A DNA stretch of 64,000 nucleotides from Ostreococcus lucimarinus (lineage: Eukaryota), in NCBI GenBank assembly GCA_000092065.1, contig CP000583.1; one strand, written 5' to 3'. The position numbers were made by a program, and so were the translations under genes. Of this stretch, positions 58,101 to 61,809 are shown piece by piece (positions within the stretch are counted from its first letter, which is position 1; each line of letters opens with the position of its first letter). The notes beneath the pieces are model-generated. The model was not told the DNA's origin. It ran no database searches and saw nothing but the letters and a program-made list of their open reading frames with translations.

Positions 58101-58637
58101 TCAGTCGAGAACGATGGGCGCGTCGTCGTCCGCCTCCGCGTCCAACACCACCACCGCATCGTCCCCCCCAGGCGCCGCCAACAACCGACTCTCATCACGC
58201 GCCGTCCCTCCCAATCGCCGTCCGCCGCCGCGCAGACCGACCTCGGCGAGTCGCGCGCGTCTCGCCGCCGCGTCTCGCGCGTTCGTCCGCGGCGACCGCG
58301 CGCGTCTCGCGCCGCCGTCCCCGCCCACGCACCGTCCGCACACCACGAAATCGCTCGCCATCATCACCGCCGCCTCGCGCTCGAGCGTTCGCAGCAGCGC
58401 GTAGAACGTCGCGTCGTGCGGTCCGATCTCCACGTGCGTCAGCTCGTGCAGCATCACCGCGAACACTTGCTCCTCGTCGATCCATCGATACGCCGCCTCG
58501 CCGCGCCCTCGTCGCTGTCGCACCAGCACCCGCACGCGCCTGCCTCGGTCGAGATTGTCCCCCCAGAGCGCGATCTCGCCCGGCGGCGCCGGCGGGAGCT
58601 CGGTGAGCTCGCCGACGCGCCATCCGCGACGCTTCAT
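58101..58637 (-). CDS. WLM-domain (Wss1-like) zinc metalloprotease
   Basis: HExxH in VFAVMLHELTHVEIGPHDATFYALLRTLERE, typical of the WLM domain. Confidence 0.6.
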   Translation of the reverse strand: MKRRGWRVGELTELPPAPPGEIALWGDNLDRGRRVRVLVRQRRGRGEAAYRWIDEEQVFAVMLHELTHVEIGPHDATFYALLRTLEREAAVMMASDFVVCGRCVGGDGGARRARSPRTNARDAAARRARLAEVGLRGGGRRLGGTARDESRLLAAPGGDDAVVVLDAEADDDAPIVLD

Positions 58638-58800
58638 GAGACCGTGCGCGCGCCTCGCGACGCGATGGAGCGTCGCGAGCGCTCGCGCGCGCTCGACGGC
58701 ATCGCCCGCGGCGTGCGCGACGACGCCGTCGAACGCGTCGACCGGGTACGGGCGGTCCAGCGCGCGCGTCGTCGTCCGCGCGACGGCAGCGCGCGACGCG

Positions 58801-59595
58801 ATGTCGAGCGCGCGCGTCGTCGTCGCGGCGCGACGCGGCGTCGCGTCGCGCCGCGGCGCGCGGACGACGACGCGCGGGGCGACGCCGAACGACGCGCGGT
58901 CGGACGAGCTCGTGCGCGCGTCGGCGCGCGCGGCGGCGGACGCGAAGGCGGCGGTGACGCGGCGAAACGTCAGGGCGACGGTCGAGGCGCGGAAGCGCGC
59001 GGACGAGGACCGCGAGGCGGCGGCGCGCGAAGAAGCGGCGGCGGAGAAGCGGGCGCGCGCGGAGGCGCGCGCGGCGGCGATCGGGGGACGACGGCCGTTT
59101 CATCGAAAGGCGGGACCGATCGCGGCGGCGGGCGCGGCGTGCTTGGCGGCGACGGCGGGGTGCTTCGAGGCGACGGTGCACGCGGGGGATTGGATAAACG
59201 CGCTGGCGGTGCCGGGAGACGCGCTGGTGGGGGCGAGCGGGGCGCCGGCGAAGAGCGGGCTGTTGACGCTGACGATCGGGGTGGGATTGACGGTGACGTC
59301 GACGCTCGCGTTTTCGACGGCGATTTTGTTCGCGTTGGCGTTTCAGGAGGGGAAGGGCGTGATAAAGAACGAACCGATCGTTTATTACCGATGCGACGGC
59401 GCCGATCCGACGTGTTGCGTGAACGGGCCGCACAACAAGGGGTATCACGAGCGGTTCGTGTACATGAATCACGGGCGCGGGTTCGAGACGCGACGGGCGG
59501 GGTGCATGCAAAGACATCTTCGCGTGTCGCGCGGGTGCTCGGCGCTCAAACCGTTGATCGTGTACCCGAAAGACGAGGACTGGGGATTCTGGTAA
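58801..59595 (+). CDS. Hypothetical membrane protein with a Cys-rich C-terminus (start uncertain)
   Basis: Charged helical N-terminus, hydrophobic segments (LLTLTIGVGLTVTSTLAFSTAILFALAF) and a C-terminal YYRCDGADPTCCVNGPHNKGYHERFVYMNHGRGFETRRAGCMQRHLRVSRGC. Confidence 0.35.
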   Translation: MSSARVVVAARRGVASRRGARTTTRGATPNDARSDELVRASARAAADAKAAVTRRNVRATVEARKRADEDREAAAREEAAAEKRARAEARAAAIGGRRPFHRKAGPIAAAGAACLAATAGCFEATVHAGDWINALAVPGDALVGASGAPAKSGLLTLTIGVGLTVTSTLAFSTAILFALAFQEGKGVIKNEPIVYYRCDGADPTCCVNGPHNKGYHERFVYMNHGRGFETRRAGCMQRHLRVSRGCSALKPLIVYPKDEDWGFW

Positions 59596-59660: not shown

Positions 59661-60887
59661 CTAAGACGACGCGCGCACGAAGAACGTTTGCGCGTCGAGC
59701 GCCGCGAGCGCGGGCGCGTCGCCGCCGTCTTCCCGCAACACGACTTCCCCGGCGCGCGTGGTGAGCTCGAACGTGGGCATCGACAACACCGCGTCGTCTA
59801 AACTGCGCGCGTAATCGAACACGTCGCGAATCGTAGACGCGTTCGCGTCGAACTTGCGCGTCTTCACCGCGCCGTTCGGCAAACTAAATCGAAGCGCCAC
59901 TACGCCCGGCGTTCCGCGCGCGGCGCTCGGCTCGGGCGCTATGGACGCGCGCAACGTCGCTTTACGAGTCTCGAACGCCTCTTGTTCGGCTAATTTAGCT
60001 CGCTCGCGCTCGGCGAGCGCCTCTTTCGCCTTTAAGAATTCCTCCTTGCGCCGGCGCTCGCGAGCGGCGATCTCATCCATCACGCGCTCGTACTCCTCGC
60101 TCGGTTCGAGCTCGACCTCTACGTCGGTCTCGAGTAAAGACACCGCGCCGAAACCGTCGTCCGGTTCCACCGCCGTCACCTTGAGCTCGTACGTCTTGCT
60201 CGGATCCGTCGTCGACGCGACGACGACTTCGTCGCCCACCGTCGCCGCGCTTCGCCCCATCATCACGCGCTCCAGCACCTCGCGCACGTCCTGATCCACG
60301 AAATCCCGCGCGAAATCATTCATACGAGGTTTCAGCGTCATCTTCGTCCCAAGCGGTAGCGCCGCGTACGTCACTCGCACCAGTCTCGCGTCGGCGTCCG
60401 CGCCGTCCTCGCGCGCCGCGTCCCCCGTCAACCCGAGCGTCCGCATCACCGGCTCCGGCAGCCCGATCGTCCCCGAATCCACGCTCCCGTAATCCAACAC
60501 CCCAACGTGCGTCTTCCTCTCTCCTCTCGACACGCAAAAGTGCGCGCGTCCGCTTCGATTCGCCCCCACGCTCGCCGCCGCGCTCGCCGGCAGTTGCGCC
60601 TTGTCCTCGCCCCGCGCGCGAATCCCCCGCCTCCTCGCCGCATCGCTCGATTGCGCGAACAAGCGCGCGTCGTACGACACGCCTTCGTTTTGCACCATCA
60701 TCGCCTCCTCGGCGCGCCGCTGTTCGCGCTCTCGCGCTCTCGCGCGCATTTTTTCATCGTCGAGCTGTTTTCGTAACGCTTCTTTCCGCGCGTTTTCCGC
60801 GCGCTCGACCGCGATCTTGTCCCGCAGCCTTCCCTGTTCGCGCGCGTTCTCCCGTTCGAGCTTCTTCGCCGCGTCGCGGAGGAACAT
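59661..60887 (-). CDS. UFD1-domain protein with a C-terminal UBX/ubiquitin-like domain and an N-terminal coiled coil (p97/Cdc48 cofactor-like)
   Basis: UFD1 N-domain THVGVLDYGSVDSGTIGLPEPVMRTLGL...KTYELKVTAVEPDDGFGAVSLLETDVEVELEP matches UFD1 [27 protein letters not shown]...[30 protein letters not shown]. The C-terminal VVALRFSLPNGAVKTRKFDANASTIRDVFDYARSL... is UBX-like. ATG at 60887. Confidence 0.6.
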   Translation of the reverse strand: MFLRDAAKKLERENAREQGRLRDKIAVERAENARKEALRKQLDDEKMRARAREREQRRAEEAMMVQNEGVSYDARLFAQSSDAARRRGIRARGEDKAQLPASAAASVGANRSGRAHFCVSRGERKTHVGVLDYGSVDSGTIGLPEPVMRTLGLTGDAAREDGADADARLVRVTYAALPLGTKMTLKPRMNDFARDFVDQDVREVLERVMMGRSAATVGDEVVVASTTDPSKTYELKVTAVEPDDGFGAVSLLETDVEVELEPSEEYERVMDEIAARERRRKEEFLKAKEALAERERAKLAEQEAFETRKATLRASIAPEPSAARGTPGVVALRFSLPNGAVKTRKFDANASTIRDVFDYARSLDDAVLSMPTFELTTRAGEVVLREDGGDAPALAALDAQTFFVRASS

Positions 60888-61026
60888 GGCGCGCGTCGCG
60901 CGTCGCCGCCTCGTCGTTCGCGCGCGTCGCTTTTTGACGCGATTCCGGAATCCGCACTCCGCGCCGCGCGTGCGTCCGCGCGCCCGTCGCGCGTCGCCTC
61001 GAAGCGCGTCGACGACGTCGATCGCG

Positions 61027-61809
61027 ATGTCCGCGAAGCGCGCGCTCGGCGCGTTGGCGACTCTGGCGACGCACGAGGCGCGCGCGGGGTCGATGAAGTT
61101 GATGACGATGTCGGGACATCGATGCGGCGCGACCGCGGCGACGACGGCGCGCGCGACGGTCGCCGGACCGACGCGCGCGCGTCTCGCGCGCGATGCGATG
61201 TCGCGCGATCGCGCGTACGCGACGCGACGAGGGACGAAGTCGAGCTCGAGCGCGGATGAGGCGGCGAGCGGGACGCGCGGCGACCTGGCGTCGACGCCGG
61301 AGAGCGGACGGTACGACGAAATCACCGATAAGTGGATCCCGGAGAAGCCGGTGAGCGTGGTCGAGGGCGCGTCGTACGGCGCGGTGGGGCTGATCGGGCT
61401 CGGGATCGCGGCGGGAGCGGTGTGGTACGGGGCGTCGGAGTTGTTGGTGACGCCGCGAGAGCAAAAGGTGTTCAACGCGGCTATGGATAAATTACACGAT
61501 GACGTGCGCGTCACCGTCGCGCTTGGATCGCCGATGACGGGATATGGGAGCGAAAGCCGCAGTCGGAGCGCGAGACACAGGATCGCGCACAGAGTGGTGA
61601 TCGATGAGAGAGGACGCGAGCGGTTGCGCGTGCAGTTTCACGCGCGCGGCGCGAGAGGAAGCGCCGTGGTGCACGCTGAGGCGGGCTTAGACGAGTCGAC
61701 GGGGAAGTGGGAGTTTCAATACATCATCGTGGACGTGCAAGGCGCGAACCCGACGCGGATTCACGTCGTTTCGCCGCAAGCGCAGCCACGGCGTCTGGTC
61801 GCGTTGTAG
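61027..61809 (+). CDS. TIM21: Mitochondrial import inner membrane translocase subunit TIM21
   Basis: Presequence-like N-terminus, one TM (AVGLIGLGIAAGAVWYG) and the IMS domain ..VRVTVALGSPMTGYGSESRSRSARHRIAHRVVIDERGRERLRVQFHARG...GKWEFQYIIVDVQ matching TIM21 ..VIGVFGESVKGYGEVTRRGRRQHVRFTEY...GEYDFRYIFVEIE. Confidence 0.75.
   Translation: MSAKRALGALATLATHEARAGSMKLMTMSGHRCGATAATTARATVAGPTRARLARDAMSRDRAYATRRGTKSSSSADEAASGTRGDLASTPESGRYDEITDKWIPEKPVSVVEGASYGAVGLIGLGIAAGAVWYGASELLVTPREQKVFNAAMDKLHDDVRVTVALGSPMTGYGSESRSRSARHRIAHRVVIDERGRERLRVQFHARGARGSAVVHAEAGLDESTGKWEFQYIIVDVQGANPTRIHVVSPQAQPRRLVAL

Follow-up and report, generated by a model that had tools for sequence, protein, structure and literature searches.

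The window analysed here is a stretch of 64,000 nucleotides from Ostreococcus lucimarinus CCE9901 (contig CP000583.1, assembly GCA_000092065.1), and it contains an intronless gene (59661..60887, minus strand) in which one polypeptide joins a UFD1-type UT3 domain to a FAF1-type tail composed of a long helix and a UBX domain. Sequence comparisons place this UT3-UBX protein in a widespread and so far undescribed family of protists and algae, whose members share the layout N-terminal helix, UT3, linker, LPxEP motif, and UBX. The parts are all known, namely a UT3 domain, a FAF-type helix-UBX module and a loop resembling that of UBXD1, and what is new is their combination in a likely Cdc48 cofactor. 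We favor, with moderate confidence, the interpretation that the gene product is a cytosolic cofactor of Cdc48/p97 belonging to this distinct family.

Gene structure and domain organization

The gene is a complete, uninterrupted open reading frame (ORF) of 408 codons followed by a TAG stop (59661-59663), and its limits are exactly those given in the preliminary description, a short account of this locus made from the sequence alone. The alignments of all twelve aligned orthologues (12/12) begin at the methionine of MFLRDAAKKL, although some of these proteins carry unconserved upstream extensions. The O. lucimarinus frame also stays open upstream of the start as far as 61514 (60888..61514, minus strand, 209 codons); this extension runs into the divergent TIM21 gene (see below) and is unconserved, and on the alignment evidence it is an artefact of ORF calling. 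We note that two metagenome gene calls (P0001 and P0208) are over-long versions of 554 and 604 residues arising from the open upstream frame. Inspection of the 408-residue protein by eye reveals neither a signal nor a transit peptide, and its predicted location is cytosolic.

An AlphaFold2 (AF2) model built on 13 orthologues, with a mean predicted local distance difference test (pLDDT) score of 76.7, gives the order helix (residues 2-67), beta-rich domain (residues 73-260), helix (residues 264-315), and a beta-grasp with the order beta-beta-alpha-beta-beta-alpha-beta (residues 329-406). All of these elements are encoded on the minus strand. The first is a long charged helix (residues 1-67; 60687..60887) that is conserved and is modelled over residues 2-67 with pLDDT values of 79-93, in keeping with the charged coiled coil that the preliminary description had placed ahead of the UFD1 domain. 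It begins with a motif conserved in the orthologue alignment, M-F-L-[RK]-D-A-A-x-K-L-x-x-E (residues 1-13; 60849..60887), which recurs in distant relatives as F-x5-[KR]-[LFI]-x-[KR]-E (e.g. SKFEREAK, SRLEKEQK, KKLEKETQ). A VIM-like reading of this motif (R-x5-A-A-x2-R) was considered and rejected by eye, as R4-D-A-A-K-K-L-E-R12 does not fit the pattern.

The UT3 domain occupies residues 72-262 (60102..60674) and is recognized by Pfam, phmmer, profile, and structural searches. Pfam UFD1_N2 matches residues 180-262 (E = 2.9e-9; 37.3 bits, just over the cutoff of 37), a phmmer comparison with yeast Ufd1 gives E = 8.6e-9, and a profile of the orthologues matches human UFD1 among the PDB sequences at E = 7e-14. 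In a Foldseek search the AF2 model aligns with the yeast Ufd1 structure 1zc1 across 203 columns (E = 1e-9), and the next matches are the N domains of Cdc48, PEX1 and NSF, which have the same fold; the UFD1 N-domain that had been recognized by reading the translation is therefore present. As in canonical Ufd1/UFD1 it comprises a double-psi barrel and a beta-clam, and the initiator-ubiquitin residues of human UFD1 (K139, E143, E184, and D186) map to R202, E206, E253, and D255 and are conserved. In contrast, the three residues of human UFD1 that dock the FAF1 helix in trans, A140, R147 and Y162, are invariant or nearly so among canonical UFD1s and are changed here to E203, M210, and S225. No SHP box is found anywhere in the protein, even with the loose pattern G.G..[LIVM], in agreement with the earlier remark that this region was not obvious, whereas of six canonical UFD1s searched in this way, five carry strict C-terminal boxes (F-x-G-x-G-x-x-L; one or two each) and the remaining one a looser box. 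By these comparisons the helix-UBX module stands here in place of UT6, the tail that in canonical UFD1 carries the SHP boxes and the NPL4-binding site.

That module begins with a connecting helix of 52 residues (residues 264-315; 59943..60098), which is predicted by AF2 and aligns to the pre-UBX helix of FAF1; within it the block ERRRKEEFxxAKEALAERE is invariant among the aligned orthologues. There follows the sequence IAPEP (residues 316-320; 59928..59942), in the alignment the counterpart of the LPPEP motif of FAF1 and FAF2, of which E319 is invariant in the orthologues, and most distant relatives have LPPEP. The UBX-type beta-grasp (residues 329-406; 59670..59903) is supported by profile, AF2, and Foldseek comparisons and retains the beta1 arginine (R333) and R344-K345-F346 in beta2. 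A profile of the C-terminal 147 residues, made from 11 family members, matches human FAF1 with E = 4.3e-17 over the helix and UBX together and 2e-10 over the UBX alone, with further matches to Rep8, UBXD1 (1e-5), p37, UBXD2, and p47. Modelled separately with AF2, the tail reaches a pLDDT of 92.1 with the same order of strands and helices; its best Foldseek match is the FAF1 UBX (6.8e-4, TM 0.58 on the target), and generic ubiquitin and SUMO folds rank behind it. On these profile and structural matches the C-terminal domain is a UBX despite its weak single-sequence score (see below), as the preliminary description had suggested, and the tail as a whole is a FAF1/FAF2-type helix-LPxEP-UBX module and not a generic ubiquitin-like (UBL) domain.

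Distribution of the family

A search of 1.84 billion cluster representatives with a full-length profile recovered 1495 proteins at E <= 1e-3, 40 of them at E <= 1e-30. Many family members are 390-450 residues long and align collinearly from the first methionine to the last strand, and in the full-length alignment the window protein is collinear with them in each of its elements: the N-terminal motif and helix, UT3, linker, LPxEP, and UBX. Among the matches to this profile the top 150 clusters at 50% identity include at least 116 with the helix-UBX module, whereas none of 118 canonical UFD1s has it. When ten distant members were searched with Pfam, eight exceeded the cutoffs for UFD1_N1, UFD1_N2, and UBX together and the other two each missed a single cutoff; collinear distant homologues clear the UBX cutoff with values of up to 6e-14.

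The collinear architecture is found in other green algae, with chlorophyte members in Coccomyxa viridis, Chromochloris zofingiensis, Tetrabaena socialis, and Chlorella sp. A99, and it extends beyond them to the diatom Thalassiosira oceanica, the oomycete Phytophthora boehmeriae, and, among alveolates, the dinoflagellate Polykrikos kofoidii and the apicomplexan relative Platyproteum vivax. The earlier suggestion of a lineage-specific Cdc48 adaptor is thus too narrow with regard to lineage, and its second part, a role as Cdc48 adaptor, is the predicted function adopted here. Some variants were also noted within the family (among P0122, P0152, P0066, P0089, and P0120), with either an SHP-like box or an NBR1-type UBA domain. 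In P0122 and P0152 the box lies in the linker before the UBX (TGTGNRLG and GGAGTVLG), recalling the bipartite SHP and UBX binding of p47, and the UBA is a C-terminal addition in some longer members, including those of Phytophthora and Polykrikos.

Relationship to canonical UFD1

The UT3 domains of 32 fused proteins and 13 canonical UFD1s, together with that of one protein lacking a UBX, were compared in a neighbor-joining tree of 179 columns. Fused and canonical proteins are split with 90/100 bootstrap support, with the green-lineage UFD1s of Trebouxia and Iris on the canonical side, and the seven sampled Mamiellales orthologues form a 100% clade within the fused group. The preliminary description had set this protein apart from Ufd1, and the tree agrees: by the phylogeny of its UT3 domain the window protein is not a canonical UFD1 orthologue.

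Canonical UFD1 genes that are intronless and encode two SHP boxes are present on metagenome contigs (Pfam E = 1e-36 to 1e-38), and the tetranucleotide signature of these contigs correlates at r = 0.95 with the locus (L003) of a fused orthologue 56% identical to the window protein. Other contigs with canonical UFD1 genes correlate at r = 0.83-0.87 with L008, the locus of a low-GC relative that also has the fused gene; as a yardstick, chunks of the window correlate with one another at 0.98-0.99. These matches suggest that the Mamiellophyceae, the class to which Ostreococcus belongs, carry both a canonical UFD1 and the fused gene. Two of the canonical genes were located precisely, L065:2986-4053 and L070:2857-4098, both on the plus strand and both intronless, with products of 355 and 413 residues, respectively, and two SHP boxes each (FLAFAGSGNRLDGK and FQAFQGSGNKLR). 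Their contigs come from estuarine or marine metagenomes, have about 60% GC, and are those whose signature matches the Mamiellales fused-gene locus at 0.95.

A proposed mode of action

In mammals, as several laboratories showed in 2025-2026, the helix-UBX portion of FAF1 and FAF2 acts as a strut: its UBX sits on a p97 N domain, and the UFD1 UT3 domain, which is otherwise flexible, is bound and positioned by its helix, with faster unfolding as a result (PMC12965308; PMC13578712). The helix-UBX alone suffices to stimulate p97-Ufd1-Npl4 (PMC12965308), and the FAF helix binds ubiquitin too (PMC12630741). The LPPEP motif packs on two UBX arginines and thereby fixes the orientation of the helix, and in FAF1 49 residues separate the UT3-binding tyrosine of the HUE motif (Y515) from E564 (bioRxiv 10.64898/2026.03.13.711538). 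In the window protein, where UT3 is joined directly to the distal end of the helix, the end of the UT3 domain and the glutamate of the PEP sequence are 53-57 residues apart.

By analogy, we propose that the C-terminal UBX of the Ostreococcus protein would dock on the N domain of Cdc48, and that the 52-residue helix would serve as a rigid strut, fixed to the UBX through the interface of IAPEP with R344-K345. The strut would hold the UT3 domain above the ring, where it would bind ubiquitin chains, such that a link that is non-covalent in mammals, between the helix-UBX of FAF1 or FAF2 and the UT3 of UFD1, would here be covalent and within a single chain. Cdc48 binding, ubiquitin binding and the strut geometry are all predicted for the window protein from its likeness to these systems. 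The conserved motif of the N-terminal helix could be a second contact with either Cdc48 or ubiquitin.

Evidence against this interpretation and alternative explanations

Several observations weigh against this interpretation. With the window protein alone, Pfam UFD1_N1 matches residues 94-156 at E = 5e-4 and 20 bits, under its cutoff of 29, and Pfam UBX gives E = 0.045 and 14.4 bits, missing its cutoff of 21; the UBX match is likewise weak in 10 of 13 orthologues. On this single sequence only UFD1_N2 exceeds its Pfam cutoff, and it is collinear homologues that pass the remaining cutoffs. Leu53 of human UFD1, a contact to the proximal ubiquitin, corresponds to A104. The FAF HUE motif (QdeaYxxSLxaD) was not found by inspection of the connecting helix; PSEEY at the start of the helix was considered as a match and rejected, being the end of the UT3 homology (cf. 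PPxGY of canonical UFD1). Many distant members have, in place of the helix, a low-complexity linker rich in Ser, Thr, and Pro, and in a few of them this linker contains the SHP-like box noted above; by this alignment a rigid strut belongs to the green-algal branch and to some others and not to the family as a whole. A search with a canonical-UFD1 profile gave 806 matches, and among the 120 listed almost all are metazoan and the O. lucimarinus UFD1 was not retrieved.

The most direct difficulty is in the S3/S4 loop of the UBX, where TTRAGE (residues 376-381; 59745..59762) aligns in place of the canonical T-F-P-R. Phe-Pro-Arg (FPR), the loop that UBX domains insert into the p97 N domain as their main contact, reads A379-G380-E381 in the window protein. 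Every Mamiellophyceae orthologue has lost it and has T-R-x-G-type sequences instead, whereas most family members beyond the Mamiellophyceae keep [FYM]-P-R (e.g. TQFPRRV, TRFPRRV). Because this loop has degenerated, we only infer a role as Cdc48 adaptor in Ostreococcus. The pattern of conservation indicates that the domain is nonetheless under constraint: among orthologues that are 52-66% identical overall, R333, L336-G339, T343, R344, F346, D364-D365, L375, and the S3/S4 loop residue R378 are invariant. That R333, R378, IAPEP and R344-K345 are invariant or conservatively replaced fits a retained UBX geometry. There is also a precedent in UBXD1, whose UBX has SGG in place of FPR and was long reported not to bind p97, but which cryo-electron microscopy shows bound in the canonical pose to the N domain of p97, aided by a conserved arginine (PMC10716044). 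From these comparisons docking in Ostreococcus is probably weaker, or is aided by another element such as the conserved motif of the N-terminal helix; more broadly, it may be weak, assisted, or lost.

Loss of Cdc48 binding from the Mamiellophyceae UBX is an alternative that we regard as unlikely, though by no means negligible. The protein would then be a ubiquitin-binding factor independent of Cdc48, or its beta-grasp would serve another partner, as has been proposed for the UBXD1 UBX and ubiquitin. Replacement of FPR by A-G-E or similar sequences in all of the Mamiellophyceae orthologues speaks for such a loss, as do the long-standing description of the UBXD1 UBX as a non-binder (PMC10716044) and a conserved acidic patch in the UBX, SLDD, which is specific to this lineage and in which D364 and D365 are invariant. 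The canonical pose of the UBXD1 domain on p97 argues the other way, as do the retained arginines and IAPEP and the persistence of FPR in relatives outside the Mamiellophyceae. It is less probable still, and in our estimation improbable, that the protein works as an accessory adaptor in the manner of FAF1 and FAF2, its helix gripping the UT3 of a separate Ufd1-Npl4 in trans and its own UT3 serving as a secondary ubiquitin receptor comparable to the FAF1 UBA. Homology of the tail to the FAF1 helix-UBX, and the ability of the latter to stimulate p97-Ufd1-Npl4 by itself (PMC12965308), would accommodate this arrangement, but the HUE motif by which the helix would bind UT3 is not present, PSEEY belonging to the end of UT3, and the linkers of many family members are non-helical.

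Two further explanations concern the identity of the gene and carry little weight. An automatic label on the O. tauri orthologue, 'Ubiquitin fusion degradation protein UFD1', and the fact that a second UFD1 is not directly shown in O. lucimarinus, where the canonical-profile matches listed are almost all metazoan, would fit a canonical Ostreococcus UFD1 with a divergent C-terminal tail. We consider this very improbable, since its UT3 domain clusters with those of fused proteins from distant phyla and apart from plant and green-algal UFD1s, the SHP boxes and the UT6 region are both missing, the tail matches the FAF1 helix-UBX at 4e-17 and is not a degenerate UT6, and intronless canonical UFD1s occur on contigs that match, in composition, Mamiellophyceae relatives with the fused gene. 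That the fusion is an artefact, either a read-through merging two genes or a chance ORF, can practically be set aside. The DNA here is GC-rich, with many long spurious ORFs in all frames, and prokaryote-style gene callers return the over-long products of 554 and 604 residues; however, the gene is a single frame with no stop, its start and end are shared by 12 collinear orthologues, and the architecture recurs both in distant protists, in proteins derived from transcriptomes, and in Coccomyxa, in a gene model with introns. The interpretation of the product as a cytosolic Cdc48 cofactor with UT3 and UBX in one chain is thus the one we prefer.

Comparison with known Cdc48 cofactors

The closest relationships of this protein are divided between two known systems. 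With canonical UFD1 it shares the UT3 domain, but it has neither UT6 nor SHP, the NPL4-binding region that belongs to UT6 is presumably absent as well, it has an additional N-terminal helix of 66 residues, it falls in a separate clade, and it keeps neither the FAF1-helix docking residues nor Leu53. With FAF1, FAF2 (UBXD8), and yeast Ubx2-Ubx3 it shares the long helix, the LPPEP-type motif and the UBX, including the PEP glutamate and the beta2 arginine pair (here R344-K345); unlike FAF1 and FAF2 it has no UBA, UBL, UAS, or HUE (Pfam finds no match to UBA or UAS in the window protein), its UT3 is covalently attached and not bound in trans, and the FPR loop is lost. The degenerate S3/S4 loop (SGG in UBXD1, AGE here) with retention of an important arginine is a likeness to UBXD1/UBXN6 (PMC10716044), although UBXD1 has a VIM, a PUB domain, and a helical lariat, lacks a UT3, and is a weaker profile match (1e-5). 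p47/Shp1 and the plant PUX proteins are likewise Cdc48 adaptors with a UBX, and the linker box of P0122 and P0152 is p47-like; however, the window protein has no SEP, UBA, or PUB domain in common with them. In a review of the PUX proteins UFD1 appears solely as a separate cofactor, and none of these proteins is described there as having a UFD1-type domain (PMC8181520).

Gene neighborhood and annotation

To the right of the UT3-UBX gene, and divergent from it, is a TIM21 gene (61027..61809, plus strand; PF08294, 2.8e-22); the two start codons are 139 bp apart and the interval looks like a shared bidirectional promoter region. On the other side is a convergent gene of about 319 residues (about 58636..59595, plus strand) with no Pfam match, which is also called in the orthologous loci L001-L006; it ends 65 bp from the UT3-UBX stop and encodes a Cys-rich C-terminus (...YYRCDGADPTCCVNGPHNKGYHERF...KDEDWGFW). 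Two genes downstream of the UT3-UBX gene is an ORF for a Wss1-like metalloprotease (WLM; 58101..58637, possibly to 58877, minus strand; PF08325, E = 6.4e-25) with the zinc motif HELTH. Yeast Wss1 is a Cdc48 partner. Three Mamiellales lineages (L001-L006) share the order TIM21, UT3-UBX, unknown gene, WLM. It is kept in rearranged form in the low-GC relative (L008), whose WLM product shows a faint SVIP/VIM match, and is not kept in Coccomyxa (L007). As the order is conserved within the Mamiellophyceae but not in Coccomyxa, we attribute it to conserved synteny and do not accept it as evidence of a functional link between the UT3-UBX and WLM genes.

The sequence is already public under automatic names only. 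The 408-residue product is identical to XP_001416843.1 / ABO95136.1 / UniRef A4RTT9 of O. lucimarinus CCE9901, which is labelled 'predicted protein' by NCBI and 'UBX domain-containing protein' in UniRef, and the O. tauri orthologue carries both the label 'UFD1-domain-containing protein' and the UFD1 label discussed above. Full-text literature searching found no description of a UFD1-UBX fusion protein or of its family, and a paper on SELMA phylogeny that includes Ufd1 trees does not mention the fusion. The domain combination is thus known from automatic database domain tables only and is absent from the literature searched, and for annotation the label 'UFD1' is misleading when applied to the fused proteins.

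Implications

Fusion of exactly these two parts provides independent comparative support for the UT3/helix-UBX partnership shown in 2025-2026. We also raise, as a tentative and on balance unlikely possibility, that the family represents an ancient and independent class of Cdc48 adaptor, which would set UT3, as a ubiquitin-unfolding domain, on the ring by means of a UBX strut without the UT6 of Ufd1 and possibly without Npl4. If this were so, the protein would be a 'Rosetta stone' fusion confirming the partnership seen in mammals, the initiation of unfolding could be studied in it as a minimal system of one chain, and the concerted loss of FPR and gain of new invariant residues in the Mamiellophyceae would represent a re-engineered Cdc48 interface. 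Judging from the distribution of the family, many algae and protists, among them diatoms, oomycete pathogens and apicomplexan relatives, may have a class of Cdc48 adaptor that is missing from the yeast, animal, and Arabidopsis models.

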